Part shown: positions 1 to 30,606 of the stretch, in pieces
How positions within the stretch are numbered: the first letter of the stretch is position 1
Layout: each line of letters begins with the position of its first letter
Source of the DNA: a bacterium
GTDB lineage: Bacteria; UBA8248
DNA: 64,000 nt
Direction: 5' to 3'
NCBI GenBank assembly: GCA_965199855.1
Contig: OZ241326.1
Location: 2,240,001-2,304,000, forward strand
Notes under the pieces: generated by a model
Told to the model about the DNA's origin: nothing
The model's input: only the letters and a program-made list of their open reading frames with translations
Databases searched by the model: none
Translations under genes and position numbers: made by a program

Positions 1-600
1 CTCGGCCGGCAGCATCGTGGAGGGGCCGCAGAAGGTGACCTCGGCGCCGAGCTTCAGGAGGCCGGCCGCGTTCGAGCGCGCCACGCGGCTGCGCGCGATG
101 TCTCCCACGATGGAGACGCGGAGCCCCTCGAACTTCTCCTTGTGCGCCCGGATGGTGTAGAGGTCGAGGAGCGCCTGGGTGGGATGCTCGTGGCAGCCGT
201 CGCCCGCGTTCACGACGGCGCACCCGAGTTCGCGGCCCAGATAGGCGGGCGCGCCGGACGCCCAATGCCGCACGACGAGGACGTCCGTGGCCATCGCCTC
301 GATGTTTCTCGCCGTGTCCCGCAGGGTCTCCCCCTTGCTCGCCGAGCTCGCGGCGACGGAGAGGTTGATGACGTCCGCCGAGAGGCGCTTGCCGGCGATC
401 TCGAAGGAGGCGCGCGTCCTCGTGCTGTTCTCGAAGAACAGGTTGACGATCGTCTTGCCCCGCAGGGTGGGAACCTTCTTGACGGCGCGCTCGTTGATCT
501 CGCGGAAGGAATCCGTCTGGTCGAGGAGAAACAATATCTCCCCGGGCTCGAGCTCCCGAATCGAGAGCAGATCCTTTCTCCGGTACGGCTCCGTTTTCAT
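1..600 (-). CDS. pyrB: Aspartate carbamoyltransferase catalytic subunit (3' part runs off the window)
   Basis: Own minus-strand translation from ATG 600: [22 protein letters not shown]...[33 protein letters not shown]...SKGETLRDT. Carries the FxExSTRT carbamoyl-phosphate motif, has a GGAG RBS and lies directly downstream of pyrR. Confidence 0.96.
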
Positions 601-12473: not shown

Positions 12474-12655
12474 CCCCGAAGCTCCCCGGAGAAGCGAGGC
12501 GCGCGCCGGAATCCCCGGCGAGGCCCGGCGCAATCCCGAATCGCCGGGACGCGGCGCCGCTCCGCCGGGCGCGTTGACACGCAATCGCCGCAGGGTGGAT
12601 CATGGCGGGCGTCGAGCGCAACCATCATCCCAAACCAGCCTGCGGGAGCCGCGAG

Positions 12656-13828
12656 ATGAGCCTGCAAACCGAAGCCGCGCTTCAGTTCGACCTGGACGAC
12701 ACGCAAAAGATGCTTCGCCGGACGGTGCGGGAGCTCTCCGAGCGCCACATCGCCCCGCGCGCCGCCGAAATCGACGAGAACGAGGAATACCCCGAAGACA
12801 TCTATCAGATGCAGAAGGAGCACGGCCTCCTCGGCATCTTCTTCCCCGAGGAATACGGCGGCGGCGGAATGGGCTTTCTGGGCGGCTGCGTCGCCATCGA
12901 GGAGATCGCGCGCTTCTGCTCGAACTCCCCGCTCTTCATCGTGCTCAACATGCTCTCGAGCCGCGTCATCGACCTGAGCGGCACGCCGGAGCAGAAGACG
13001 CATTATATGACGGGCCTCGCCAGGGGCGAACTTCGGGGCTCCTACGCCCTCACGGAGCCCCACGCGGGCTCCGACGCCGGGAACATCCGCACGCGCGCCG
13101 TCCGGGAGGGCGAGGAGTGGGTCATCAACGGGACGAAATGCTTCTGCACGGGACCCGACAAGGCGGACTTCATCACCGTCGCCGCCAAGACCGACCCCGG
13201 CGCGGGCGCGCGGGGCATCACCTACTACGTCGTCCCCACGGACGCGCCCGGCTTCAGCATCGACAAGCACGAGCGCAAGATGGGGATGCGCGGCATCTCG
13301 ACCTGCATGCTGCGCTTCGACAGCGTGGCCGTGCCCCTCGAGAACCAGATCGGCGAGCTGAACCAGGGCTTCAGAACCGCGATGATCGGCTTCAACCAGA
13401 TGCGGCCCGCCATCGGCGCGCGCGCGGTCGGCCTCGCCCAGGGGTGCCTCGACTACGCCGCGGGCTACGCGAAGGAGCGCGAGGCCTTCGGGAAGCCCAT
13501 CGCCCGCCACCAGGCCGTCCAGTTCATGCTCGCCGACATGTTCATGGACATCGAGGCGTCGCGCCTGCTCGTCTATCGCGCCGCCTCGATGGTGGACGCC
13601 GGACAAATCGGCAAGGAGAACGCCCGGTATTTCTCGACGGCCAAGACCTACGCGGCCGACATGGCGATGAAGTGCGCGATAGACGGCATCCAGGTGCTGG
13701 GCGGGGCGGGCTACATGAAGGATCACCCGCTCGAGCGCTTCATGCGCGACGCCAAGCAGATCCAGATCGTCGAGGGGACGAGCCAGATTCAGCGGATCAT
13801 CATCGCCCGCAACCTGCTCGACCTCTAG
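12656..13828 (+). CDS. Acyl-CoA dehydrogenase (copy 1)
   Basis: PEEYGGGG, ALTEPHAGSD, INGTKCF, KMGMRG, REAFGKPI..HQAVQF, QVLGG.GY, IVEGT. Confidence 0.95.
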   Translation: MSLQTEAALQFDLDDTQKMLRRTVRELSERHIAPRAAEIDENEEYPEDIYQMQKEHGLLGIFFPEEYGGGGMGFLGGCVAIEEIARFCSNSPLFIVLNMLSSRVIDLSGTPEQKTHYMTGLARGELRGSYALTEPHAGSDAGNIRTRAVREGEEWVINGTKCFCTGPDKADFITVAAKTDPGAGARGITYYVVPTDAPGFSIDKHERKMGMRGISTCMLRFDSVAVPLENQIGELNQGFRTAMIGFNQMRPAIGARAVGLAQGCLDYAAGYAKEREAFGKPIARHQAVQFMLADMFMDIEASRLLVYRAASMVDAGQIGKENARYFSTAKTYAADMAMKCAIDGIQVLGGAGYMKDHPLERFMRDAKQIQIVEGTSQIQRIIIARNLLDL

Positions 13829-13840
13829 GAGCGCGCGGAG

Positions 13841-15010
13841 GTGGGGCCGGGGGCGGAGCCGCCCGCCGCGTTCGGGCTGAGCCGGGCGCAGCGAGCGCTG
13901 GGAGAGAGGGTCTATGCGCTGAGCCGCCGCCGCGTCGCGCCCCGCGCCGCCGACATCGACGAAAGCGGGGAATACCCCGAGGATATTTTCCAGCTCCTGA
14001 AGTCCCGCGGCCTCCTCGGCCTCTACGTCCCCGAAGAATACGGCGGGGCGGGCCTCGGCGTCCTGGAGACGTGCGTCGCCATCGAGCAGATGGCGCGCTT
14101 CTGCTCGAACTCTCCCCTTTTCTTCTCCGTCCACCTGCTCGCCACCCGCGCCGTCGCCATAGGCGGAACCGGGGCGCAGAAGAGCGTCTGGCTCCGCGGC
14201 GTAGCCCGGGGCGAGCTGCGCCCCGCCTTCTCGCTCACCGAGCCGCACGCGGGCTCCGACGCCGCGAACATATCGGCGCGCGCGGCGCGGGAGGGGGACT
14301 CGTGGGTCATCAACGGCCAGAAGTGCTACTGCACCGGCGCGAGCGTCGCCGACTTCCTCACCGTGGCGGCGAAGACCGAGGCCGGGGCGGGGGCGCGCGG
14401 CGTCTCCTTCTTCATCGTTCCCAAGGGCGAATTCCGGGTGGGCCGCCGCGAGAGGAAGATGGGGATGCGGGGAATCCCCACCTGCGAGGTGTTTTTGGAG
14501 AACGCCCACGTCCCCCTCGAAAACATCATCGGCGATCGGGCGACGGGCTTCAGAACCGCCATGCTCGGCTTCAACCAGGCGCGGCCCGCCATCGGCGCGC
14601 GCGCGGTCGGCCTCGCCCAGGGGTGCCTCGACCACGCCGCGGGCTACGCCAAGGAGCGCGAGGCCTTCGGGAAGCCCATCGCCCGCCATCAGGCCGTCCA
14701 GTTCATGCTCGCCGACATGTTCATGGACGTCGAGGCGTCGCGCCTGCTCGTTTACCGCGCCGCCTCGATGGTGGATAATGGGCGCTATCAAAAGGAGGAC
14801 GCGCATTTCATCTGCGCCGCGAAGTGCTTCGCGTCCGACGCGGCCATGAAGGCGGCCGTGGACGCGGTTCAGACCCTGGGCGGGGCGGGCTATACGAGGG
14901 ATCACCCGCTCGAGCGGTTTATGAGAGACGCCAAGCAGCTGCAAATCATCGAGGGGACGAACCAGATTCAGCGCATGGCGATCGCCCGGAATCTGCTGGG
15001 CCTGAACTGA
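13841..15010 (+). CDS. Acyl-CoA dehydrogenase (copy 2)
   Basis: Same motifs (LTEPHAGSD, KMGMRG, IIEGTNQIQ); tandem paralog of copy 1. Confidence 0.95.
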   Translation: MGPGAEPPAAFGLSRAQRALGERVYALSRRRVAPRAADIDESGEYPEDIFQLLKSRGLLGLYVPEEYGGAGLGVLETCVAIEQMARFCSNSPLFFSVHLLATRAVAIGGTGAQKSVWLRGVARGELRPAFSLTEPHAGSDAANISARAAREGDSWVINGQKCYCTGASVADFLTVAAKTEAGAGARGVSFFIVPKGEFRVGRRERKMGMRGIPTCEVFLENAHVPLENIIGDRATGFRTAMLGFNQARPAIGARAVGLAQGCLDHAAGYAKEREAFGKPIARHQAVQFMLADMFMDVEASRLLVYRAASMVDNGRYQKEDAHFICAAKCFASDAAMKAAVDAVQTLGGAGYTRDHPLERFMRDAKQLQIIEGTNQIQRMAIARNLLGLN

Positions 15011-15040
15011 CGCCTCGCTTCCCGCCGCCGGAGGTTACGG

Positions 15041-15661
15041 ATGAGCCGGACCATTGAAATTCTCACGCCCACCTCGTTCGTCCGCGCGGGCGATCATCCC
15101 CTGGCGGCGCGGCCGGGAGAGCTCGGCGGACTCAGAATCGGCTTTTTCCACAACAACAAGCCGAACGCCGACGCCCTCCTGGAGCGCATCGAGGAGCTCC
15201 TCGCGCGGGAGGACGAAACCCTCCGCTTCGTCCGCTGGGGAAAGCCGAACCCGACGCTGCCGGAGGCGCGCCTCGGCGAGTTCATCAAGCAGGTGGACGC
15301 GGCCGTCTGCGCGGTGGGCGACTGAGGCAGCTGCACGTCGTGGAGTATCCACGACGCGGTGGAGATGGAGAAAGCGGGGATTCCGACGGCCACGTTCTGC
15401 TCCAGCGAATTCTCCGCCCTGGGCGCGAACGAGCGGGTCGCCCTGGGGATGCCGGGCCTTCCGATAGTCGTCGTGCCGCACCCCGTGGGGGGGATTCCGC
15501 CCGAACGGGCGCGCGCCCTGGGGGACGCGGCGCTGGACGAGGTTCGGCGCGTCCTCACGGAGGACGCGGAATCGCTGCGAAGGGAATACCGCGAGCGCGC
15601 CTACGCCCCGCCCCGCCGGACGGTGCGCCACAAGGCGCTTTTCGCCCGGGGGTCGGCGTGA
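15041..15661 (+). CDS. UGSC-family selenoprotein (Sec at TGA 15323-15325), 206 aa
   Basis: ORFs 15041-15325 and 15359-15661 are in the same frame and joined by a single TGA: VDAAVCAVGD-U-GSCTSWSIHDAVEMEKAGIPT. This gives a UxxC motif, with a SECIS-like hairpin downstream. Confidence 0.88.
15336..15356 (+). promoter_or_regulatory. Bacterial SECIS-like hairpin
   Basis: CGTCGTGGA-GTA-TCCACGACG, a perfect 9-bp stem with G in the loop, starting at the 11th nt after the UGA. Confidence 0.8.
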
Positions 15662-15707
15662 GACGCCGGACGGACGGGAGCGCGCGCGGCGCAAGCGGGA
15701 GCGCGGC

Positions 15708-16799
15708 ATGAGCGATCCCTCCTCCGAAGCGCCTCCAGAAGCGGCGTCCCTCCCGAGCGAGCGGGTGAAGGTTCGGGACGCGCCCGAGGCGCTCGCGCGT
15801 CTCCTCGAGGCGAGGGGATGGGGCGACGGCCTGCCCGTCGTTCCCCCCACGCCCGGGCGCGTCGCCCGCATGGTGGAGGGGGCGGGGCTGGCCGCTGGGG
15901 AGGAAATCGGCCGGATGCCGCCCCGCCAGGGAGTCGTCACGGTCGAGGCGCTCGCCGTCAACGCCGTGATGGCCGGATGCCTCCCGGCCTACATGCCCGT
16001 TCTCGTGGCGGCGGCGCGGGGGGCGCTCCAGCCGGAATTCTCGCTCCACGCGCTCCAGGCGACGACCCACCCGGTGGCGCCCCTGATCATCGTGAACGGC
16101 CCCGTCGCCGCGAGAATCGACATGAACGCGGCGTATGGATGCTTCGCCCCCGGAAACCGGGCGAACGCGACGATTGGCCGCGCGATGCGCCTGACGCTCC
16201 TGAACGTAGGCGGGGCGAGCCCGGGCGTTCTGGATCGCGCCACCCAGGGCTCGCCCGCGAAATACGCATTCTGCATCGCCGAGAACGAGGAGGAATCCCC
16301 CTGGGAGCCGCTGCACGTCGAGCGCGGCTTCGCGCCCGGGGAGAGCGCCGTCACGGTCGTGGGCTGCGAGGGGCCCCACAACGTCAACGATCACGTGAGC
16401 CACGCGGCGGAGGGCATTCTCGCCGCCGCCGCCGACACGATGTCCGTCATGGGCGGCAACAACTTCTATCTGAGGGGCGAGCCGCTCCTCGCGCTCGGCC
16501 CCGAGCACGCGGCGACGATAGCGGGGGACGGGCTGTCGAAGGCGGACGTGAAGCGAAGGATTTTCGAGCTCGCCCGAAAGCCCGCGCGCCAGCTCCGGCG
16601 CGGCGCCATGTGGGGGATGCAGACCTGGGGGGAGGAGATAGCGAGAAACGAGGGAGATGACGACTACGAGATTCCGCTTCTGGATCGGCCCGAAGACCTC
16701 ATCGTCATCGTGGCGGGCGGCGCCGGCAAGCACTCCTCCTACCTGCCGACGTTCGGCCCCACGCGCTCGGTGACCACCCGGGTCGATTCGCCGGCCTGA
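15708..16799 (+). CDS. Conserved protein of unknown function, partner of the UGSC protein
   Basis: Motifs GWGDGLPVVPPT, AVNAVMAGC, GNRANATIGRA, AENEEESPWEPLH, VAGG.GKHS. Strong GC3 coding bias. From recall, this family typically neighbours UGSC genes. Confidence 0.8.
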   Translation: MSDPSSEAPPEAASLPSERVKVRDAPEALARLLEARGWGDGLPVVPPTPGRVARMVEGAGLAAGEEIGRMPPRQGVVTVEALAVNAVMAGCLPAYMPVLVAAARGALQPEFSLHALQATTHPVAPLIIVNGPVAARIDMNAAYGCFAPGNRANATIGRAMRLTLLNVGGASPGVLDRATQGSPAKYAFCIAENEEESPWEPLHVERGFAPGESAVTVVGCEGPHNVNDHVSHAAEGILAAAADTMSVMGGNNFYLRGEPLLALGPEHAATIAGDGLSKADVKRRIFELARKPARQLRRGAMWGMQTWGEEIARNEGDDDYEIPLLDRPEDLIVIVAGGAGKHSSYLPTFGPTRSVTTRVDSPA

Positions 16800-16913
16800 G
16801 CGAAAGCGGGAAAACGAGGCTTCGTCCCCGCCGGGAGCGCCCCCCCTCTCGCCCGGCTTCACGGATTCCCCAAAATCCCGCTCCGCGCGCGGCCCGCGAA
16901 TTGCGTCTTCGCG

Positions 16914-16943
16914 TTGCCCGCGGCTTCGCCTCCGTGCTAGATT
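16914..16943 (+). promoter_or_regulatory. Possible promoter for the rid-yqeB-AAA-VWA-yqeC-xdhC unit
   Basis: TTGCCC-N18-TAGATT with an extended TG motif, in the 177-bp gap. Confidence 0.4.
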
Positions 16944-16976
16944 CCCGCTTCCGTAGAGCCTCAGAGGGAGAAAGCC

Positions 16977-17378
16977 ATGCCGAAGCAGCAGATCGACTCG
17001 GAGAAGGTGAGGCCGGTGGCCGCGTATTCCACGGGCTGGAAGGTGTCGAACGGGCATCTCGTCATGCTGGCGGGCCAGGTGGCGACCGACACGGAGGGCC
17101 GCACCGTCGGCGGAGACGACATCAAGGCCCAGGCGCGGCAGGTCTATGAGAACGTCAAGGCCGCGCTCGAGGCCGCCGGCGCCGGAATGGAGGACGTCAT
17201 CCGCCTCACCGTCTATCTCACGGATCGGGCGAATTTTCCGGGAAGCGCGGAGGTGCGGCAAGCCTACTTCAGCCCGCCCTATCCGGCGAGCACGCTCCTC
17301 ATCGTGAGCGGACTGGCGAACCCGGAATGGCTCATCGAAATCGACGCCGTCGCCTTCGTGGAGGACGGGACGCCGTGA
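16977..17378 (+). CDS. Rid (YjgF/YER057c/UK114) family protein
   Basis: AYS, LAGQV, QARQVYENVKAALEAAG, YPASTL, LIEIDAVA. Confidence 0.92.
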   Translation: MPKQQIDSEKVRPVAAYSTGWKVSNGHLVMLAGQVATDTEGRTVGGDDIKAQARQVYENVKAALEAAGAGMEDVIRLTVYLTDRANFPGSAEVRQAYFSPPYPASTLLIVSGLANPEWLIEIDAVAFVEDGTP

Positions 17379-18232
17379 GAGGCGGCAGGGCGGTTTCCGA
17401 GACGCTCGTTCTCGTGAAGGGGGGCGGCGACCTCGCCACCGGCGCGGCGCACCGCCTGCGCCGCTCGGGCTTTCCCGTGATGATGACGGAAATCGAGCGT
17501 CCGACCATGGTCCGCCGCGCCGTCTCCTTCGCCGAATGCCTCTACGCCGGCGAATGGCGGGTGGAGGGCGTGGCTTCCGCGAGGGCGGAGGGCGGCTCCC
17601 TGGAGGAGAAAATCGCCGGCGCGCGCGCGCTGATGGAGGCGGGCGCCGTTCCCGTGATGGTCGATCCGCGCGCCGAGGCGGTCGCCCGCGTCCGGCCCGC
17701 CGTCGTGATCGACGCGATTCTCGCCAAGCGAAACCTCGGCACCCGCATCGAGGACGCCGAGGTGGTCATCGGCCTGGGGCCCGGCTTCACGGCGGGGGTC
17801 GATTGCCACGCCGTCATCGAGACCGCCCGGGGGCACGACCTGGGGCGGGTGATACTCGAAGGGGCGGCGAAGCCGGACACGGGCGCGCCGGGCGCCATCG
17901 CGGGCTACGCCGCCGAGCGGCTGCTGCGCGCCCCGCGCGCCGGCGCGTTCGCCTCCGCCGCCCGCATCGGGGACGCGGTGCGGGCGGGACAGGCCGTCGC
18001 CCGGGTGGACGGGGAGGAGGTGACGGCCCGCATCGACGGCGTCCTGCGCGGCCTGCTCAGGGACGGCATCGAGGTGAGCGCGGGCTTCAAGGTGGGCGAC
18101 GTCGACCCCAGGGCCGAGCCTTCCCACTGCGTGACGATATCGGACAAGTCGCGCGCCGTCGGCGGCGGCGCGCTCGAGGCCGTCATGATGTTCCTGTTCG
18201 GCGTCTCCCCGGCCGCGGAGCGCGCGAATTGA
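17375..18232 (+). CDS. yqeB: Selenium-dependent molybdenum hydroxylase system protein, YqeB/EF2563 family
   Basis: VKGGGDLATGAAHRL, PTMVRRAVSF, DAILAKRNLGT, IGLGPGF, ETARGHDLGR, LRGLL.DG, KVGDVDPR, ISDKSRAVGGGALEA. GTGA overlap with the rid gene. Confidence 0.93.
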   Translation: MRGGRAVSETLVLVKGGGDLATGAAHRLRRSGFPVMMTEIERPTMVRRAVSFAECLYAGEWRVEGVASARAEGGSLEEKIAGARALMEAGAVPVMVDPRAEAVARVRPAVVIDAILAKRNLGTRIEDAEVVIGLGPGFTAGVDCHAVIETARGHDLGRVILEGAAKPDTGAPGAIAGYAAERLLRAPRAGAFASAARIGDAVRAGQAVARVDGEEVTARIDGVLRGLLRDGIEVSAGFKVGDVDPRAEPSHCVTISDKSRAVGGGALEAVMMFLFGVSPAAERAN

Positions 18233-19113
18233 GTCCCGACATTCTGGCGGAAACGGTGGAAAGCGGCGCCTACCGCATCGGGCGCAGCGAAATCCCGATC
18301 AACCAGGCGAACGGCAACGCCTTCGTCCCCCCCGCGCAGTTCTATCTGGCGGCGGGCGACGCGCTCGAGCGCATCGCGTGGGCGGTGAGCCAGAACCTCC
18401 CCGTCCTGCTCGTCGGAGAGACCGGCGTCGGCAAGACGCTCTCGGTGCGCTACCTCGCCCACATGACGAACAACGGCTTCAGGCGCGTGAACCTCAACGG
18501 CATGACCACGGTCGATGAATTCGTGGGCAAGCTGATGATCAACGAGCAGGGCACCTACTGGGTGAACGGCATCCTGATCGACGCGATGCAGTCGGGAGAC
18601 TGGCTGCTCATCGACGAGATCAACGCCTGCCTGCCCGAAATCGCCTTCTGCCTCCACAGCCTGCTCGACGACGACCGCATGATCGTCCTCTCGGAGTATG
18701 ACGGCCGCGTCGTCAAGCCCCATCCGGACTTCAGGCTCTTCGCCAGCATGAACCCCCACGAGGACAGGAGATACGGCGGCACGAAGCCCCTGAACGAGGC
18801 GCTTCTGGATCGCTTCCCCGTCACCGTGAGGATGGACTACCTGCCCTTCGAGGCGGAGGTCGAGGTCATCATGCGGCAGAGCGGGAACGGCGACGAGGAG
18901 CTCGTCCGGCGCATGGTGCGCGTGGGCCACGACGCGCGCGAGGCCATGAGGAACGAAAAGGTGTTCTGCACCTTCAGCACCCGGCGCCTGATTGACTGGG
19001 CGCGCATGGCGGCGCGGTTCGACCCCATGGAGGCCGCCGTCTCGACCATCTTCAGCAAGGTCAACTCGTTCGACGCCAAGGTGCTCGAGGACATCGTGGA
19101 CAACCACTTCTAG
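18229..19113 (+). CDS. MoxR-class AAA+ ATPase, CbbQ/NirQ/NorQ type
   Basis: TTG start overlapping the yqeB stop. Walker A GETGVGKT, Walker B LLIDEIN, FASMNP, ALLDRF and a CbbQ-like C-terminal STRRL. Confidence 0.92.
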   Translation: MSPDILAETVESGAYRIGRSEIPINQANGNAFVPPAQFYLAAGDALERIAWAVSQNLPVLLVGETGVGKTLSVRYLAHMTNNGFRRVNLNGMTTVDEFVGKLMINEQGTYWVNGILIDAMQSGDWLLIDEINACLPEIAFCLHSLLDDDRMIVLSEYDGRVVKPHPDFRLFASMNPHEDRRYGGTKPLNEALLDRFPVTVRMDYLPFEAEVEVIMRQSGNGDEELVRRMVRVGHDAREAMRNEKVFCTFSTRRLIDWARMAARFDPMEAAVSTIFSKVNSFDAKVLEDIVDNHF

Positions 19114-19128
19114 CCGGGAGACGCAGGC

Positions 19129-20898
19129 ATGGAGCGCCGACGCGCCCGCCTCGAGACCCTCGCGCAGGTGACGGCGCGCGACTACGGCCTCGCCCTGCTG
19201 TTCGGCTCCCGGACGGAGACCGGGGACGACGCCGTCCTCGTCGAGGACCCGGAGCGGACCCTGGCGCGCCTGGGCGGCGGCCTCGACGACGAGCGCGTCC
19301 TGCGATACCAGAAGGGCATGACGCTCATCGAGGTGGCCCGCAGGCTCCAGGGGACGCTTCGCTGGGCGGGCCGCGCGGCCCTCGCCAACCGGGAGACGCC
19401 GGGCCTTTTCCACCTCTGGCGCGCCCTCGAGGACGCCAGATGCGAGAACCGCCTCGCCGAGTCGCTGCCCGGCACGAGAAAGAATTTCCGCGCCTTCGTC
19501 CGTCCCGCGATCGAGGACGCCGAGCGAAGCCACGCGCGGGGGGAGCTCCCCCTGCTTCTCCAGATTCAATGGGGCATCTACCTCGCCGGCGTCGGCCAGA
19601 CGCCCGGCGCCGCCTCCTCAAGGCCCGGGGATTTGCCCTCGGCCTGGTTCGATTCCGTCATCGCCCAGATTCTTCAGAGGCTCGTCCCGATCATCGACCG
19701 CGCCTGCGCGGCCAAAGAGCCGAAGACCGCCTTCGACTGCGCGAACGAAATCTACGACGCCGTGCGGCGCTTCCTCACCGAGGAGCAGCTCGCGCAGATG
19801 CGCGAGAGCGAGGAGCTCTCGGAGCTTCCGGATGAAATTCTGGAGAAAATCGAGAACCAGAAACTCCAGGGGGAGGAGTCCGAGTCGCCGGAGGCGCTCC
19901 ACCCGGAGGCGCTCGACGAGGTGGACGCGGACGAGGGCGAGCAGGTCGAGCTCACGCCCGAGGAGCTCGCCGCCCTGGGCCGCTGGGCGTCTCCCTGGTT
20001 CGAGATGGAGGGCGGCGGGAAGGAAGTCCACCCGACGGCGGAGCATCCCGACGAGCGCACCATCGTCCTGCCCCCGGAGGGCAAGGCGGAGGAATACGCG
20101 GCGATCATGGACGGCGCGGGCAGCCACATCAAGGTGCTGGCGTGGAAGCTCACGCAGATCATTCAGGAGAGAGCCTACGCCCGCTTCAGCGGCTCGCACC
20201 GCTCCGGCAAGCTGAACGTCCCGAAGCTCTGGAAGCAGCGCCTGGGCAAATTTCATCTTTTTCACCGCAAGGAGGAGCCCGAGAAGCTCGACGTCTGCTT
20301 CACCCTCCTCGTGGACGAGAGCGGCAGCATGAACCGCGAATCGAAATACGTAGCCGCCAGGGAGGCGACCGTGTTCTTCGCGGAAGTCCTCGACCGGCTG
20401 GACGTGCCCTTCGAGGTGATCGGCTACTCCACCGAGAGCTCGGAGGCGGCCATGGCGGCCGCGCTCGGCCACATCCCCGCCTTCAAGTTCAGGCACATCC
20501 GGCACTCCCCCCTTCAGCACCGCATCTACAAGGGCTTCGAGGACGCCTTCCCCCAGGTCAAGAACCGTCTCGTCAACATTTATCCGCGCTTCAACAACTG
20601 GGACGAGGAGCATCTGCTGTTCGCCTACCGAAGGCTCAGCCAGCGGCCCGAGGAGGAGAAGATCATCATCATCACCTCGGACGGCCAGCCCAACGGCGAC
20701 GCGGCCCACCTCGTGAGCGCGGTCGGCCGCCTCCAGGCGCTCGGCGTGCGGATCATCGGCGTCGGCGTGGTGGACCCCTTCGTCGAGCAGATCTACCCGA
20801 ACCACATCGTGGTGCAGGACCTCTCCCAGCTCTCCACGGAGCTGGTGAACATTCTGCGGCGCGAGCTGCTCGGGGGGGCGGAGGGCCGCCCTTGGTAG
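19129..20898 (+). CDS. VWA-domain protein, CbbO/NorD/CobT-like
   Basis: N-terminal LEDARCE, acidic linker, SGKLN, MIDAS DESGS, ITSDGQPN. Confidence 0.88.
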   Translation: MERRRARLETLAQVTARDYGLALLFGSRTETGDDAVLVEDPERTLARLGGGLDDERVLRYQKGMTLIEVARRLQGTLRWAGRAALANRETPGLFHLWRALEDARCENRLAESLPGTRKNFRAFVRPAIEDAERSHARGELPLLLQIQWGIYLAGVGQTPGAASSRPGDLPSAWFDSVIAQILQRLVPIIDRACAAKEPKTAFDCANEIYDAVRRFLTEEQLAQMRESEELSELPDEILEKIENQKLQGEESESPEALHPEALDEVDADEGEQVELTPEELAALGRWASPWFEMEGGGKEVHPTAEHPDERTIVLPPEGKAEEYAAIMDGAGSHIKVLAWKLTQIIQERAYARFSGSHRSGKLNVPKLWKQRLGKFHLFHRKEEPEKLDVCFTLLVDESGSMNRESKYVAAREATVFFAEVLDRLDVPFEVIGYSTESSEAAMAAALGHIPAFKFRHIRHSPLQHRIYKGFEDAFPQVKNRLVNIYPRFNNWDEEHLLFAYRRLSQRPEEEKIIIITSDGQPNGDAAHLVSAVGRLQALGVRIIGVGVVDPFVEQIYPNHIVVQDLSQLSTELVNILRRELLGGAEGRPW

Positions 20899-21719
20899 CG
20901 GAAGGCGGCCTCGCGCGGATGATCGGCGCCCGAGCGGGGCGGATCGTCGCGGCGGTCGGGGCGGGGGGGAAAACGAGCCTGCTCACGGCGCTCGCCCGGG
21001 AGTTTCACGCCCGAAGCGGCGCGCCCGCCCTCCTCACGACGACCACCAGAATTTTCGCGCCCCTGCCGGAGGAGGGGATTCCCCTCGCCCTGGGCGACGC
21101 CGCCGCCCTCTCGAGGAGGCTGCGCCCCTACATGAGAGCCTGCGGCGTCTCCTGGCTCGCCCGCGGACGCGAGGGCCGCGCGCCGGTTCCGGGCCGGGAG
21201 GGCGAGCGCCGCATGAAGCTGCGCGGCTTCGCGCCCTCCGAAATCGAGGGATTGCGTCTCGCGGAGGGCCTCACCCTCATCGAGGCGGACGGGGCGAGGC
21301 GCCTGCCCGTCAAGGCGCCCGGCGCGCGGGAGCCCGTCCTGCCCGAAGGCGTGGACGCCGTGCTGGGCGTCGTGGGGCTGGACGCCCTGGGCGCGCCCCT
21401 GGACGAGGCCCATGCGTTCCGCCCGGAGCTGCTCTCGCGGATATGCCGCCTGGACGCCGGCGCGGAGATCACGGCGGAGGCGATCGGGGCGCTGTGCGCG
21501 CACCCCGAGGGGCTGTTTCGCAAGGCGGACGGCGGCGCGCGCAGGTGGATCGTCCTCAACAAGGCCGATTTGGAAGCCTCGCTGGAAAAACGAAGAAAGA
21601 TCGCCTATACTATCCGGGAAATGGCGGGAAAGCCCCATGGGCCGGCGGACGGGGTTCTCCTGACCTCCTGCCTGAAGAACAGGCCGGAAGTTTTGCTGCG
21701 AATCGGGCCGGACGCCTGA
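20892..21719 (+). CDS. yqeC: Selenium cofactor biosynthesis accessory protein YqeC
   Basis: VAAVGAGGKTSL, LTTTTRI, LIEADGARRLPVKAPG.REPVLP, VVGLDALG, HPEGLFR, LNKAD. Start is either TTG 20892 or ATG 20919. Confidence 0.9.
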   Translation: MVAEGGLARMIGARAGRIVAAVGAGGKTSLLTALAREFHARSGAPALLTTTTRIFAPLPEEGIPLALGDAAALSRRLRPYMRACGVSWLARGREGRAPVPGREGERRMKLRGFAPSEIEGLRLAEGLTLIEADGARRLPVKAPGAREPVLPEGVDAVLGVVGLDALGAPLDEAHAFRPELLSRICRLDAGAEITAEAIGALCAHPEGLFRKADGGARRWIVLNKADLEASLEKRRKIAYTIREMAGKPHGPADGVLLTSCLKNRPEVLLRIGPDA

Positions 21720-21749
21720 GAGGAGGCGGCCCGCCTGCGCGGAGGAGAG

Positions 21750-22895
21750 ATGAGCGAGGACGTTTTCAGGGAAATGGCGAGGATGAAGGAGAAGGGGCAG
21801 GCGGGCGCGCTCGCCACCGTCGTGGCCCGCAAGGGCTCCGCGCCCATGAGCGGCGACGCGAAGATGCTCGTGCGCGAGGACGGCAGCGCCGAGGGCACCG
21901 TCGGGGGCGGCTGCCTGGAGGCCGAGGTCTGGGAGACCGCGATGAGCGTCCTCGAAACGGGCGCGCCCGAGAAGCTCTCCTTCGACCTCACCCAGAAGGA
22001 GGCGGAGGACAGCGGCCACATCTGCGGCGGCGTGGTGGAGATACTGGTGGAGCCGCTCCGGGCGTTTCCCCGGGAGCTGCTCGATGAGATCAACCGCGTG
22101 AAAAACCGGGGCGGAAGTGCCGCGCTGGCGACCATCGTCCAGCCGGGGGCGCTCGACATCCCGAAGCCCGAGGCCGGGAAAATGCTCTTCAGGCGCGACG
22201 GCAGCTCCGTGGGGGAAATTCCGCGCTATTCGGCGGAAGTCTGGGCGGAGAGCGCGCAGGTGATTCGCCAGGGCAGCCCCACCCTCCTGCACTTCAGCCA
22301 GGGCGCCGCGCGCGGCGGAGGAAAGAAGCCCGCGCCCGGCGAGGCGACCGAAATTTTCGTGGAGCCCATCTCCGGCCAGCCGCTCGTCTATATCTTCGGC
22401 GGCGGGCACGTATCCTTCTGCGTCGCGCAGGCGGCCTGGCTCGCCGGCTTCCGGGTCGCCATCGTGGAGGACAGACCCTCCTTCGCCAACAAGGAGCGCT
22501 TCCCGATGGCCGAGGCGTTCCACGTGGGCGATTTCCCGGAAGTTTTCAGGGAAATTCCGGTGGACGAGGCGGACTACCTGGCCATCATCACCCGGGGCCA
22601 CGCGAACGACGAGGTCGTCCTCGAATGGGCGATGAAGACGAAGGCGCGCTACATCGGGATGATCGGCTCGAAGAGCAAGGTGCTGCTCACCTACCGCCAT
22701 CTTCAGGAGAAGGGCTTCGCGCGGAGCGAGCTCATCGAGCGCGTCCACGCGCCCATCGGCCTGGACATCGGCGCCGACACGCCGGGCGAGATCGGAATCG
22801 CCATCGCCGCCGAGTTCGTCCGCCATCGCCGCCGGGGCGAGGCGGAAAGCGAGGGCGCGGGCAGCAAGCGGGTGCGCCTGGGAAGAAAGGCGTAA
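21750..22895 (+). CDS. xdhC: XdhC/CoxF family molybdenum-cofactor chaperone
   Basis: ATVVARKGSAP, GTVGGGCLE, ICGG, FGGGHV, TRGH..D, YIGMIGS, APIGLDIGADTPGEI. Confidence 0.92.
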   Translation: MSEDVFREMARMKEKGQAGALATVVARKGSAPMSGDAKMLVREDGSAEGTVGGGCLEAEVWETAMSVLETGAPEKLSFDLTQKEAEDSGHICGGVVEILVEPLRAFPRELLDEINRVKNRGGSAALATIVQPGALDIPKPEAGKMLFRRDGSSVGEIPRYSAEVWAESAQVIRQGSPTLLHFSQGAARGGGKKPAPGEATEIFVEPISGQPLVYIFGGGHVSFCVAQAAWLAGFRVAIVEDRPSFANKERFPMAEAFHVGDFPEVFREIPVDEADYLAIITRGHANDEVVLEWAMKTKARYIGMIGSKSKVLLTYRHLQEKGFARSELIERVHAPIGLDIGADTPGEIGIAIAAEFVRHRRRGEAESEGAGSKRVRLGRKA

Positions 22896-22939
22896 AAGCC
22901 TCTCGCCTCCGGCCCCCGAGCGGGATTCGCCCGAACGCC

Positions 22940-23752
22940 ATGAGCCACCTGCGCGCGCTCGCCGCGGCGGCGACGGACTTCCTCATCCCCCCGAAATGCC
23001 TTTTGTGCGCGAGCGCCCTGGAAATCGGCGGCGCGCGGACGATATGCGCGCCCTGCGACGAGGCGCTCGATCGCTTCGAGCCGCCCTGGTGCCCCAGGTG
23101 CGGCGCGCCCTTCCCCTCCCACGCCGCCCTGTCGCACTCCCCCGCCCACCACTGCGCGGAGTGCGCGGAAAACGTCTTTCACTTCGACGGGGCGCGCGCC
23201 GTCGGCGCCTTCAAGGGCTCTCTCCGGGAGCTGGTCCACCTGTTCAAATACGGAGGCGTCACCAAGCTGGCGCACGAGTTCGCCCCCCGGCTCGCCGCGC
23301 TCGCCGCGGACGAGCTGGGCGTCGGGCGGGACGATCCGGACGTGATCGTAACCCACGTGCCGATAGCGTCCGCGCGCTGGCGGGAGCGGGGCTTCGATCA
23401 AACGCGCCTGCTCGCGCTCCGGACGGCGAAGAGCCTCGGAGCGCCGCACGCGGACTGTCTGGAGCGCGCGAAGGAGACCCGTCCGCAAACCGGGCTCTCC
23501 GCGAGCGAGCGGCGCCGCAACGTACGGGGCGCCTTCCGGGCGCGCCCGAAGGCGGCGCGGATGCTCGAAGGGAAGACGTGCATCCTCCTCGACGACGTCA
23601 TCACCACCGGCTTCACCGCCTCGGCCTGCGCCCGCGAGCTCAAGCGGGCGGGCGCCGCCGCCGTGCACGCGCTCACCATCTGCCGCTCGCGAGGGCCCGC
23701 GCCCCCGCCGCGCGCGGAGGGGGTCAACGAGAGGGCTACGCATAACCTGTAA
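22940..23752 (+). CDS. comF: ComF family protein (double zinc ribbon + PRTase domain)
   Basis: CLLC/CAPC/CPRCG/CAEC, FKYGG, ERGFDQ, RRRNVRGAF, LLDDVITTG.T. Confidence 0.9.
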   Translation: MSHLRALAAAATDFLIPPKCLLCASALEIGGARTICAPCDEALDRFEPPWCPRCGAPFPSHAALSHSPAHHCAECAENVFHFDGARAVGAFKGSLRELVHLFKYGGVTKLAHEFAPRLAALAADELGVGRDDPDVIVTHVPIASARWRERGFDQTRLLALRTAKSLGAPHADCLERAKETRPQTGLSASERRRNVRGAFRARPKAARMLEGKTCILLDDVITTGFTASACARELKRAGAAAVHALTICRSRGPAPPPRAEGVNERATHNL

Positions 23753-23780
23753 TTTTTCCCGCCCGTCAGGAGGAGCAAAA

Positions 23781-24587
23781 ATGCAGGATCGATACACGGG
23801 CGACGTAGGGGATTTCGGCAAATACGGACTGCTCCGCGCCATCACCCGGCCCGGGATTACGAAAAAAGACGGCCAGGAGACATTGAGCCTCGGCGTCGTG
23901 TGGTATCGCCATCCCGACGAGAAAGACACGAACGACGGCGAGCATATCGACTATCTCGGCCCTTCCGGGCGCGAGAATTTTCGGAAGTGCGATCCTGAAC
24001 TATATGATTGCCTGAGCAAGATCGTCAGATATGACTCCAAAACCAGGAAGGCAAAGGGTCGCAGGGCGATATCGAAGATCGAGAATAGCGAGATACTCGG
24101 TTCGCAAACTCGTTTTTTCGGCAGGCGATGTCCTTATGACGCGGATGCTCGTAAAAAATGGCGCCGAGAAGCGTTGAACGAAATGAAGGGATGCGATTTG
24201 GTATTCCTCGACCCGGACAACGGGCTCAGGTGCAACCAGAACCTTGACAGCGGAAAACACGCCTACCTTGAGGAAGTCTTGAGCTTTGTTCTTCAAGGCA
24301 GCGCAGTAATTTTCTATCATCATCCTGACAGGTGAAAAACGCATAATGAACAAATCAGAAAACTCGCTCAATATATTGCTCGCAAGTTGGATAAAAATCA
24401 CCGCGTATCCGCTTTCCGTTACCGCAGAGGGAACTCCCGGGCGTTTTTCATCATTTGGCCGCGGGATCGGCAGAAAGTATTCAAGCCCCGCATGAAGGCG
24501 ATTCGTGATGGCCTGTGGGGCCGGGAATGTCGCTTTGAACTCACGGCGCGTTCCATCTCCGGCAAAAGCAGGGGCAACCCGAGTTAG
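23781..24587 (+). pseudogene. Conserved hypothetical gene (MQDRYTGDVGDFGKYGLLR type) interrupted by an in-frame TGA at 24333-24335
   Basis: AT-richer islet with an AGGAG RBS and a LVFLDPDNGL motif. The frame continues past the TGA (KTHNEQIRK...FRYRRGNSRAFFII) to TAG 24587. Confidence 0.65.
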
Positions 24588-29736: not shown

Positions 29737-30606
29737 CTAGAACGCATCCGACCAGCTTCCGCGGCGGCGCTCGCCCGCGTCGCACGGCGGCGCCGCTCTC
29801 GACGCGGGGAGCGCTCCCGCCGCGGCCGCCGCTCCCGAAGCGAGAAGGGGGGTTCGCTTCGCGCTCCGCGCCGGGCGCGGAGCCGGCGCGCCGACGATCT
29901 CCAGCGCCAGCTTTCTCCTGACGGCGCGCCCGAAGGACCCGAAGCCGTCGGCGACCACCAGAAAGGAGCGCCTGCCCCCGATGACGCATTTTCGATAATA
30001 CAAATCCAGGTTCGGCATCGGGGCTCTCCCCCAGGGGCTGGGCCGGCCGTTCATGATGGGGAGTCCGTTGATCGTCACCCCCGCGCGCAGGGCCTTCGCG
30101 CGCGCCGCGGTCACGAAGTCCCCGCTGTTGTTGGGGCCGTCGCCGGAGATGTCGATGACGCGGCGCTCCCCCCTGAAGCCGCTGCCCTCGAACAGCGTCA
30201 GCGCGAACTCTATCGCGCCGCTTATGGAGGTGTAGGGCCCCCTGCCCACCGGCCTGCGGGCGAGGAGAGCGGCGAACGCCTCGGCACTCGCCCTGTCGTG
30301 AATCCCCCGCCAGCCCACCACGCTGGTCTGAAAATCGTAGCCTGCCCACTCCACGTAGGTCGCCGCGATGCGCTTTCGCCTGCCCGAGCGGATGGCGCGC
30401 AGGACGGAGGGGGAGCGAAAGGCGCTCACGTATCCCATGCGCTGGAGCTTCCCCTCTTCTTCGTCCACGCTGCCGGAGACGTCGATGGCGAGAACCAGCT
30501 CCAGGTCCACGGCGACCTCGGCGGAGCGCGCGAGACCCGCGTGAAGGGAGACAGCGAGCGCCGCCGCCAAAGCCGCCGGAGCGATTCGCGTGAAGGAGCG
30601 AGCCAT
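29737..30606 (-). CDS. DUF1194 (VWA-like) secreted protein
   Basis: Signal peptide, VDLELVLAIDVSGSVD, RRVIDISGDGPNN, TINGLPI, YY..CVIGG. Confidence 0.85.
   Translation of the reverse strand: MARSFTRIAPAALAAALAVSLHAGLARSAEVAVDLELVLAIDVSGSVDEEEGKLQRMGYVSAFRSPSVLRAIRSGRRKRIAATYVEWAGYDFQTSVVGWRGIHDRASAEAFAALLARRPVGRGPYTSISGAIEFALTLFEGSGFRGERRVIDISGDGPNNSGDFVTAARAKALRAGVTINGLPIMNGRPSPWGRAPMPNLDLYYRKCVIGGRRSFLVVADGFGSFGRAVRRKLALEIVGAPAPRPARSAKRTPLLASGAAAAAGALPASRAAPPCDAGERRRGSWSDAF

Follow-up and report, generated by a model that had tools for sequence, protein, structure and literature searches.

The two genes that lie between yqeB and yqeC in this bacterium probably encode a CobST-like motor and its adaptor, which would act together at the last step in the maturation of molybdenum hydroxylases (rough probability 0.6). 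A maturation role by client remodelling, as in NorQD, CbbQO, or CoxDE, is the best reading of the pair because both genes are intact, they are embedded in a yqeB/yqeC/xdhC set, and their family is tied to Mo hydroxylases in two phyla. The pair was not found described in print. In the window, i.e., the whole 64-kb stretch of DNA that was analysed, the genes follow one another in the order yqeB, AAA+ ATPase, VWA/MIDAS protein, yqeC, and xdhC (Table 1).

Table 1. Features of the locus (positions in the window) and parts of the VWA protein (positions in residues)
Feature	Position	Strand	Remarks
Sigma-70-like promoter match, 10/12 positions	12574-12603	+	ahead of gene row 12602-24335
RidA-family gene	16977-17378	+	Pfam Ribonuc_L-PSP, 95.8 bits
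yqeB	17327-18232	+	YqeB TIGR03309, 347.6 bits (cut-off 220)
AAA+ ATPase, MoxR-class, CobS-like, 294 aa, TTG start	18229-19113	+	Pfam AAA_5, CbbQ_C
VWA/MIDAS protein, CobT-like, 589 aa, ATG start	19129-20898	+	Pfam CobT_C, VWA
yqeC, P-loop, TTG start	20892-21719	+	YqeC TIGR03172, 162 bits (cut-off 73)
XdhC-family gene (putative Moco insertion chaperone)	21750-22895	+	XdhC_C 127 bits, XdhC_CoxI 90.8 bits
VWA protein, N-domain, helical	residues about 1-245
VWA protein, linker, acidic, disordered, 33% D+E	residues about 246-289
VWA protein, pre-VWA extension: long helix and low-confidence finger loop	residues about 290-385		predicted model
VWA protein, VWA domain with complete MIDAS	residues 386-581

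The pair overlaps both of its flanking genes, as claimed in an earlier note on this DNA, with TTGA at 18229-18232 containing both the stop codon of yqeB and the start codon of the AAA+ gene and TTGGTAG at 20892-20898 doing likewise for the VWA gene and yqeC, and each overlap is kept in some relatives. An NTGA overlap of yqeB with the AAA+ gene was found in five of the 10 relatives listed (L016, L017, L020, L034, and L036), while two (L040 and L042) had a separate AAA+ start and the alignment of the other three stopped short of AAA+ residue 1. At the VWA/yqeC junction, TTGGTAG or GTGA occurred in 6/14 relatives listed, GTGA occurred also in five of the next six, and the two most distant relatives (L042 and L047) had no overlap. 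In addition, GGGAGA is located 8-13 nt ahead of the VWA ATG. The yqeB gene is single copy in the host genome (one tblastn match), and the RidA-family gene immediately 5' of it overlaps the longest yqeB ORF. A majority of the closest relatives retain it in this upstream place, and at the listed class I loci RidA adjoins YqeB. Downstream of the pair, the GxGGKT motif of YqeC was invariant in the alignment, and the XdhC-family protein exceeded the Pfam cut-offs of both XdhC_C and XdhC_CoxI and scored 303.8 bits with NF045664, under its cut-off of 350. A gene encoding a UGSC selenoprotein and a partner gene were also observed 1.5 kb upstream. The composition of the pair is native (~68-69% GC, the same as its flanks). 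That 12602-24335 forms a single long transcription unit is weakly suggested by the sequence, the sigma-70-like match in Table 1 being the only strong one ahead of this same-strand row; such sites numbered 4 against 0.5 expected, and terminators were not in excess (6 observed, 7.2 expected).

Judged by its sequence, the AAA+ protein is MoxR-class, passing the cut-offs of both AAA_5 (98.6 bits, cut-off 22) and CbbQ_C (37.6 bits, cut-off 20.6). The Walker A and B motifs, Arg finger, and MIDAS, which had been described as intact, were confirmed and are invariant throughout the aligned homologs. In the 22 aligned AAA+ family members these are Walker A (G63-E-T-G-V-G-K-T70), Walker B (D129-E130), and the Arg finger (R195), together with sensor 1 (N175) and sensor 2 (R252/R253), at positions that parallel those given for CobS in the accessible part of 10.64898/2026.10.09.757910. 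Against PDB chains, the AAA+ profile scored 127 bits with CobS, 94 with CbbQ, and 79 with NorQ, giving the ranking CobS > CbbQ > NorQ > MoxR. The predicted model (pLDDT 83, pTM 0.82) matched the fold of NorQ (TM 0.70) and CbbQ (TM 0.74), and when it was searched for the helix-2 and pre-sensor-1 inserts, a hairpin spanning 152-162 was seen, along with isolated residues in strand conformation around 104 and 110 (pLDDT ~70).

Its partner exceeded the Pfam cut-offs of CobT_C (63.5 bits) and VWA (25.6 bits). The MIDAS residues D396, S398, S400, N489/N490, and D518 were invariant in the 37 VWA homologs and align with the DxSxS, N, and D of CobT, as these are given in 10.64898/2026.07.21.739949. With the VWA profile, CobT alone was matched in the PDB (110 bits, near full length, 81-570), and no NorD or CbbO chain appeared at E<=0.01. 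The predicted model resembles the NorD VWA (target TM 0.60-0.69) and the midasin MIDAS. Accordingly, the type CbbQ/NorQ assigned in the earlier note is correct at the level of fold (TM 0.70-0.74), whereas by sequence CobS and CobT are the nearest characterised relatives of the pair.

The VWA family is discrete, as 64 of the 67 matches scored at least 312 bits and the other three 42-45 bits, two of these three carrying the source name CobT. Gene order was surveyed at 73 loci from species-representative genomes. The order yqeB-AAA-VWA-yqeC-xdhC was found at 39 loci of the host phylum (31 complete; eight truncated at contig ends yet in agreement), and the order yqeB-AAA-VWA, with xdhC not adjoining, at five, so that yqeB was joined to the pair in 44/44 loci of these two orders, wherever upstream DNA was present. 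Chloroflexota contributed 27 further loci, 23 of them with any upstream DNA, and in 22 of these 23 the pair followed genes for FAD, 2Fe-2S, MoCoBD_1, and MoCoBD_2 proteins (15 directly, three after a 2.3-kb insert, and four on cut contigs); the remaining locus, L063, was too short to tell. The earlier note had named, as evidence against itself, closest homologs lying mostly in non-Se, non-Mo contexts; instead, 71/73 loci showed a Mo-hydroxylase or yqeB context, the two exceptions being distant phage-like matches. On the VWA tree, each of the three gene orders fell into a clade of its own, indicating three independent contexts, all Mo-hydroxylase-related, and the synteny therefore counts as three independent arrangements rather than 71.

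The host genome is a single contig of 100% completeness and encodes 10 Mo-hydroxylase large subunits (MoCoBD_1 matches), none of them in the window or its surroundings. YqeB, YqeC, SelD (344 bits, with an in-frame TGA), and Mo hydroxylases, the components by which a Se-dependent Mo-hydroxylase accessory system is recognised, were all present, and a MocA/YgfJ-like gene, at 171.8 bits, narrowly missed its cut-off of 186. The XdhC-family gene in the cluster of the pair is the only one found genome-wide with two XdhC queries. Moreover, a CoxE-type VWA gene (C1:1997360-1997986, PF05762 207 bits) lies beside CoxM/CoxS-like genes, suggesting that another maturation system coexists in this genome. Across the host phylum, the VWA protein was detected in 48 and YqeB in 49 of 51 species; two genomes of the one genus in which the family is absent (G010 and G011, 95% complete) had neither of the two proteins and no MoCoBD_1 match.

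In Chloroflexota, the neighbour of the pair is a four-subunit molybdenum hydroxylase in which the large subunit is split in two. The best matches of the two parts are 3HRD chains A and B, and we take 3HRD to be the structurally proven Mo-Se nicotinate dehydrogenase. The first half scored 233 bits with 3HRD versus 164 for the next entry, and for the second half 3HRD (218 bits) was the only match at E<=1e-45. This hydroxylase shows 66-77% identity among the pair-bearing Chloroflexota loci, as opposed to 59% for its best match in 300 other sampled genomes of the class, all without the pair, indicating that the pair tracks one hydroxylase subclade. Related split NDH-like hydroxylases without the pair were present in 18 of those 300 genomes, and the 10 hydroxylases of the host reached at most 34% identity to the Chloroflexota enzyme.

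The evidence on selenium itself is mixed. In the Anaerolineae-class sample of Chloroflexota, YqeB was present in 179/301 genomes and the pair in 1/301 (the centre genome), illustrating that selenium-cofactor maturation has no general need of the pair. Among the pair-bearing Chloroflexota, YqeB was over its cut-off in 23 of 26 genomes, with one further contig-end fragment; this is only a modest enrichment over the 59% background, and the genomes are kin. SelD and YqeC were each detected in the five such genomes tested, and yqeB and yqeC sit together in Chloroflexota, away from the pair. With yqeB present and the pair absent in 178/300 sampled genomes, a role specific to selenium is no more than plausible. 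Thus, of the dedicated chaperone for Se-Mo cofactor insertion put forward in the earlier note, the context of Mo-hydroxylase maturation stands, in two phyla, while the restriction to selenium does not follow from a comparison in which YqeB far outnumbers the pair.

For the preferred maturation role, the homology to CobST and NorQD suggests a working order. The AAA+ protein would form a hexameric ring, on which the VWA protein would dock via its N-domain with the finger loop reaching into the pore, and the MIDAS face of the adaptor would be presented to the client. The client could be a xanthine-oxidase-family molybdenum hydroxylase or its cofactor donors XdhC/YqeB/YqeC, and not CobN. An ATP-driven pull on the adaptor would then open the buried active site, and the opened site may receive, in what we infer to be the assisted step, the molybdenum cofactor and a labile terminal selenium (or sulfur) ligand. 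A more daring version, which we offer tentatively as a minority possibility, is that the operon acts as a "selenium chelatase", with the CobST-like motor driving either a Mo-cofactor carrier (XdhC/YqeB/YqeC) or the folded hydroxylase through an ATP-powered replacement of the oxo/sulfido ligand by SelD-derived selenide. If true, this would be the first catalyst to be identified for Mo=Se formation and would give AAA+/VWA systems a new class of client, and the phage relatives of the CobS/CobT type might likewise be motors that load cofactors.

Alternatively, the pair could be a selenium-independent chaperone that aids the loading of the molybdenum (MCD) cofactor by XdhC, or subunit assembly, with yqeB and yqeC merely sharing its operon. 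A general service function of this kind is suggested by the about 70 MoCoBD_1 matches in a relative (G009), and it would suit the single XdhC-family gene found beside 10 hydroxylase large subunits, the Chloroflexota pairs that accompany structural genes with yqeB-yqeC elsewhere, and the frequency of YqeB without the pair. We nevertheless consider it rather unlikely, given the unbroken junction with yqeB in 44/44 loci, five of which keep yqeB and not xdhC adjoining, the likeness of the Chloroflexota hydroxylase to the Mo-Se enzyme 3HRD above all others, and the co-occurrence with SelD and YqeC in 5/5 and YqeB in 23-24/26 pair-bearing genomes. Very improbable, in our view, is a role unrelated to molybdenum enzymes, be it as a general MoxR/VWA stress chaperone, in a system of conflict or of phage origin, or in assisting the UGSC selenoprotein. 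Phage families do outscore cellular CobS/CobT (182.7 and 152.7 bits), two distant matches have phage-like contexts, and the UGSC gene and its partner are close by; however, no PADLOC match was obtained, UGSC and partner are absent at many pair loci (L025, L026, L030, L031, and all of class II/III), the GC content is native, and the context is kept across two phyla. Finally, the possibility that the pair drives an authentic aerobic cobaltochelatase (CobST) in the synthesis of vitamin B12 can be dismissed even though CobS and CobT are its top names in NCBIfam, in PDB sequence comparisons, and in the source annotation, since the scores fall far under the equivalog cut-offs (85 vs 558 and 51 vs 759), CobN is absent from the 100%-complete genome (PF02514, 0 matches genome-wide; control genomes responded), the 64 family members stand apart from CobT (312 bits or more, then 45), and the flanks examined hold no cobalamin genes.

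Membership in the CbbQ/CbbO, NorQ/NorD, or CoxD/CoxE systems was not supported. No RuBisCO, NO reductase, or CobN domain was detected in the 50 window ORFs scanned, which bears out their reported absence, and no RuBisCO large subunit was detected genome-wide (PF00016, 0 matches), speaking against a CbbQ/CbbO Rubisco activase. NorQ/NorD is disfavoured by the lack of a NorD match to the VWA profile (E<=0.01) and of nor genes in the window, and CoxD/CoxE because VWA_CoxE (PF05762) reached 15.9 bits, under its cut-off of 26.4.

Considering known systems in turn, the pair is embedded within the SDMH accessory set YqeB/YqeC(/YgfJ) described by Haft and Self (2008). In C. difficile, genetic evidence shows that purine use dependent on selenium requires YqeB (PMC11448449). 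Word searches of papers on the accessory set, as far as their text was accessible, found no mention of AAA, VWA, CobT, or MoxR, and the classical organisms (E. coli, clostridia, and enterococci) were unmatched in the family search. The locus offers a testable lead on how selenium-dependent molybdenum enzymes obtain their cofactor or labile selenium, and a motor and adaptor that overlap yqeB and yqeC, to which they are probably coupled in translation, in one phylum and stand in a Mo-Se-like hydroxylase operon in another make up an expressible set for reconstitution. To our knowledge, YqeB and YqeC have served as markers only, and we know of no description of their biochemistry.

Among characterised proteins, CobS/CobT of the cobaltochelatase CobNST (PDB 9UJV and 9UKA) are the best match, sharing the AAA+-then-VWA order and, in CobT, a four-part build in which a helical N-domain is followed by a disordered linker of about 70-90 residues, a finger/shaft ahead of the VWA domain, and the MIDAS. 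However, TIGR01650 scored 85.2 against a cut-off of 558.55 and TIGR01651 51.4 against 759.05 (7- to 15-fold below), the genes nearby are those of yqeB/yqeC/xdhC or of Mo hydroxylases instead of cobalamin genes, and the AAA+ protein is 34 residues shorter than CobS, mainly at the C-terminus, where CobS binds CobT-N. The only AAA+/VWA set known to us to act on a xanthine-oxidase-family molybdoenzyme is CoxD/CoxE/CoxF of Oligotropha carboxidovorans, which matures the Mo-S-Cu site of CO dehydrogenase. The pair differs from it in the AAA+ domain (AAA_3 37 bits vs AAA_5 98.6) as well as in the weak VWA_CoxE score, and is accompanied by yqeB and yqeC in place of a CoxF-type partner. CoxD, an AAA+ protein, is needed for the ATP-dependent sulfuration of Mo in the folded CO dehydrogenase apoenzyme, according to the accessible text of PMC4240915, and this reaction corresponds, with sulfur in place of selenium, to the step suggested for the pair.

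The highest profile scores came from phage CobS/CobT-like pairs (PHROG 249; 1576 and 17276), with 182.7 bits for phrog_249 (AAA+) and 152.7 bits for phrog_1576 (VWA part). Their fold is similar (TM up to 0.79) and CobN-type neighbours were lacking in the two loci seen, but they are longer or differently built, and the VWA match covers only residues 336-581; the Lachnospiraceae examples are proteins of 604 and 689 aa, encoded alongside SSB, HTH, methylase, and ligase genes. The unexplained phage "CobS/CobT" genes thus gain a relative of cellular origin in the pair. NorQ/NorD, which inserts iron into NO reductase, and the Rubisco activase CbbQ/CbbO share with it the fold and the Pfam CbbQ_C domain of the AAA+ protein, as well as the logic, outlined in the accessible part of PMC13036017, of a MoxR ring and a VWA finger that remodel a metalloenzyme, and differ in lacking any sequence match in the VWA protein and in their nor and cbb genes, which the window does not contain. 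The theme of an AAA+ ring and a VWA finger, known from CobST, NorQD, CbbQO, and CoxDE, would therefore extend to a new family with, probably, a new client.

Homology with CobST and NorQD, conserved gene neighbours and the CoxD precedent together suggest that the AAA+–VWA pair may be a motor by which a folded molybdenum hydroxylase is opened so that cofactor or selenide can be delivered, a reading to which we assign a probability of roughly 0.6. The two genes lie within an unbroken row of plus-strand genes extending from 12602 to about 24335 of the window, whose GC content is approximately 69%.

Genes of the row that holds the AAA+–VWA pair, and one gene outside it (window positions)
Feature	Position	Strand	Remarks
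Two acyl-CoA dehydrogenases	start of row	+	
UGSC-family selenoprotein	15041-15661	+	in-frame TGA 15323-15325; NF041046 136 bits (cut-off 125) with TGA read as U
363-aa protein without family	15708-16799	+	
RidA	16977-17378	+	
YqeB	17327-18232	+	
AAA+ ATPase	18229-19113	+	Pfam AAA_5 and CbbQ_C lid
VWA adaptor	19129-20898	+	Pfam CobT_C and VWA
YqeC	20892-21719	+	
XdhC family	21750-22895	+	
ComF-like phosphoribosyltransferase, then small unknown gene	end of row	+	
DUF1194 protein	29737-30606	-	238 bits; 9 kb downstream

The pair coordinates given in the earlier note were exact, and its claims of intact ATPase and MIDAS motifs and of overlaps with both flanking genes were borne out. Alignment of 22 family members revealed invariant Walker A, Walker B, sensor 1, Arg finger, and sensor 2 motifs in the AAA+ protein, and residues D396, S398, S400, N489/N490, and D518 of the VWA protein were invariant in 37 homologs, coinciding in a pairwise alignment with the DxSxS, N, and D of the CobT MIDAS reported in a preprint (10.64898/2026.07.21.739949). 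Moreover, TTGA holds both the stop codon of yqeB and the start codon of the AAA+ gene, as TTGGTAG does for the VWA gene and yqeC; among the relatives compared, most of the closer ones show overlaps of the NTGA, TTGGTAG, or GTGA type, and the most distant ones do not. These recurring start/stop overlaps point to putative translational coupling of the pair with yqeB and yqeC.

A VWA search of 5.8 billion proteins returned 67 matches, 64 of them at 312 bits or more and the remaining three at only 42–45 bits, two of the latter labelled CobT by their source. Within this discrete family, the AAA+ protein (62–96% identity) is far more conserved than the adaptor (34–99%). Scanning one genome per species yielded 73 loci, which were classed by tblastn with the window's own proteins, Pfam, and probes from the Chloroflexota reference locus (L059). 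The order yqeB-AAA-VWA-yqeC-xdhC (class I) was found in 39 of the 73 loci, 31 complete and eight cut by contig ends but consistent, and five loci had yqeB-AAA-VWA with neither yqeC nor xdhC adjoining (class II), YqeC being encoded elsewhere in all five genomes. The other 27 loci with an assigned order, all from Chloroflexota (class III), had no adjoining yqeB, and the pair stood behind genes for an FAD subunit, a 2Fe-2S subunit, MoCoBD_1, and MoCoBD_2 (positions 4291-7992 in L059). These hydroxylase genes were immediately upstream in 15 of the 27, and in three a 2.3-kb insert with two sugar-type genes came between them and the pair; four further contigs ended inside the hydroxylase, four had no upstream DNA, and one locus (L063) contained only an insert gene within its 1.1 kb of upstream DNA. 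Neighbourhood statistics, proposed as a check in the earlier note, place yqeB beside the pair in classes I and II (39 + 5 loci) and hydroxylase genes before it in 22 of the 23 class III loci with any upstream DNA. In a quick maximum-likelihood IQ-TREE analysis of the VWA protein (57 rows: the window plus 56 of the 73 loci, namely those in which a single stop-free alignment extended over 520 residues), each class fell on one side of a branch (supports 85, 100, and 100), so that the loci amount to three independent arrangements, not 71.

Two Lachnospiraceae loci (L087 and L088) were not counted as belonging to the family, owing to their 28–29% identity, confined to the VWA part, and their phage-like context. 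They encode a 604-aa AAA_5 protein, a small HTH protein, and a 689-aa CobT_C/VWA protein (L088:5424-9549, L087:30-2114) near SSB, MazE-like, methylase, and NAD-ligase genes, and are a putative phage or mobile-element version of a CobS/CobT-like pair. In two class II loci, genes for a two-domain rhodanese and a BioD-like protein lie just downstream on the opposite strand, beside aminotransferase genes (L049:11727-13336, L057:11684-13379). Rhodaneses can carry sulfur or selenium; the biotin-type neighbours suggest that their proximity to the pair is a coincidence.

The class III arrangement offers a candidate client. Its hydroxylase large subunit is split into proteins of 433–436 and 336 aa, whose best matches among solved structures are 3HRD chains A and B (in their titles, the large and medium molybdopterin subunits of nicotinate dehydrogenase). 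Both halves are colinear with these chains over their full length, the first at 233 bits (next entry 164) and the second at 218 bits, the only match at E ≤ 1e-45. The 3HRD enzyme is the structurally proven Mo–Se case. Among pair-bearing loci, the large subunit was 66–77% identical to its L059 counterpart, whereas the best match reached 59% in an even sample of 300 other genomes from their class, and relatives of 43–59% identity without the pair occurred in 18 of the 300. On these identities, the pair in Chloroflexota goes with one hydroxylase subclade.

In the window's own genome, the XdhC gene of the row is the only one of its family found, YqeB is single-copy, and ten hydroxylase large subunits are encoded, none near the operon, which accordingly looks like the core maturation locus serving every hydroxylase in the cell. 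A MocA/YgfJ-like gene is located elsewhere. The SelD gene (C1:2985603-2986568, on the genome's single contig) has one in-frame TGA, as in all five Chloroflexota genomes tested, indicating that SelD contains selenocysteine; the 'SelD-like' gene that neighbours a hydroxylase, at C1:665 kb, proved to be ThiL. Across the phylum, hydroxylases of the xanthine oxidase family showed a large, variable expansion (own genome G000 compared with relatives G009, G047, G010, and G011), with 10 MoCoBD_1 matches in the own 3.04-Mb genome, 6 in a 2.2-Mb relative, and 73 in a 5.2-Mb relative, a few of the latter being fragments of a single gene. Elsewhere in the genome, a VWA gene of the CoxE type (PF05762, 207 bits) adjoins CoxM-like FAD and CoxS-like 2Fe-2S genes (C1:1994307-1997986), suggesting a second, CoxDE-style maturation system besides the pair. 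The UGSC selenoprotein and its 363-aa partner have paralog pairs at C1:383076-392650, 2857569-2860862, 884651-886269, and 211664-213259. Two of these sets directly flank hydroxylase large-subunit genes: one, at about 383–393 kb, combines a hydroxylase and a UGSC gene with four partner copies in tandem, and in the other, at about 2857–2861 kb, a partner copy adjoins a hydroxylase. In addition, hand-chosen coordinates C1:667500-669400 (L095:11500-13400, minus strand), 5 kb from a hydroxylase gene, hold an open reading frame spanning 633 aa or more, with an M20 peptidase domain at 272–633 and an N-terminal part 30% identical to YqeC (tblastn).

The relation of the pair to selenium bears on its proposed role. 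Among 51 species of the own phylum, the adaptor was found in 48 and YqeB in 49; the exceptions were a 67%-complete genome, in which YqeB is truncated, and G010 and G011 (2.1 Mb, 95% complete), which belong to a single genus and lack adaptor, YqeB, and any MoCoBD_1 domain. In pair-bearing Chloroflexota, YqeB scored above cut-off in 23 of 26 genomes, with one further fragment at a contig end, and all five genomes tested had SelD as well as YqeC, the latter immediately beside YqeB. This YqeB enrichment, in organisms that are kin, is weak evidence for a selenium role. In the same class at large, YqeB was detected in 178 of 300 genomes and the pair in none, so the selenium trait clearly does not require it. 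A selenium-specific version of the motor is plausible but, in our estimation, less likely than not. The main rival to the motor reading, by which the pair would insert cofactor independently of selenium, is considered rather unlikely.

Family placement rested on how the two proteins scored against PDB, NCBIfam, Pfam, and PHROGs, together with fold searches. CobS (85 bits) and CobT (51 bits) ranked first in NCBIfam, both 7- to 15-fold below their cut-offs. Against PDB sequences, the AAA+ profile scored 127 bits with CobS, 94 with CbbQ, 79 with NorQ, and 47 with a MoxR, and midasin outscored CobS only because several midasin AAA domains add up; the VWA profile matched CobT at 110 bits over positions 81–570 of 576, and no NorD or CbbO chain. 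The AAA+ model (pLDDT 83, pTM 0.82) was closest in fold to NorQ and CbbQ (TM 0.70–0.74), and the VWA model (pLDDT 77.7) to the midasin MIDAS domain and the NorD VWA; the fold library, ending 2026-04-08, listed no CobS or CobT chain, and fold therefore cannot rank CobST. The label 'CbbQ/NorQ-type' in the earlier note holds for fold, but by sequence CobS and CobT are nearest. The absence of Rubisco and CobN it had reported for the window extends to the whole genome (one contig, 100% complete). With this build and these absences, the pair is CobST-like but is not a cobaltochelatase. Phage families outscored cellular relatives (phrog_249, 182.7 bits; phrog_1576, 152.7 bits). Moreover, the own genome has a single weak paralog of the AAA+ protein; multi-domain midasin-like giants dominated an AAA+ search of protein representatives, with one family representative (P0100) among the 150 matches listed; a search for longer proteins with the VWA part revealed no fused forms, which is weak evidence; and PADLOC gave no match for a defence role.

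The papers examined on the YqeB/YqeC system make no mention of AAA, VWA (von Willebrand), CobT, or MoxR, and the best 12 of 354 matches in a search that covered subscription journals thinly included no publication joining selenium-dependent molybdenum with MoxR, CobS, CobT, VWA, or AAA+. All organisms involved are uncultured. Sponge metagenomes, from several studies, made up most of the runs with near-identical DNA (window 16900-22900), which makes a sponge-associated bacterium the probable source; none of the 22 sequencing runs listed was of RNA.

By homology with CobST and NorQD, the AAA+ protein would form a hexamer whose lid is gripped by the adaptor N-domain while a finger enters the pore; ATP turnover would then pull or twist the adaptor, whose MIDAS face may bind the client. 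CobN has that role in CobNST, and the conserved neighbours nominate a molybdenum hydroxylase or its cofactor donors here. The adaptor model, with a confident helical N-domain, a disordered linker (246–289; 33% Asp+Glu; 59–87 residues in homologs), and then a long helix, a low-confidence loop (351–383), and the VWA fold, follows the plan described for CobT, namely a CobS-lid-binding N-domain, a disordered linker of about 90 residues, a shaft/finger into the CobS pore, and a CobN-facing MIDAS (10.64898/2026.07.21.739949; 10.64898/2026.10.09.757910). In function, the closest precedent for the proposed role is the AAA+ protein CoxD, which has CoxE as its VWA partner and is reported to be required if the Mo site of CO dehydrogenase is to undergo ATP-dependent sulfuration once the enzyme has folded (PMC4240915).
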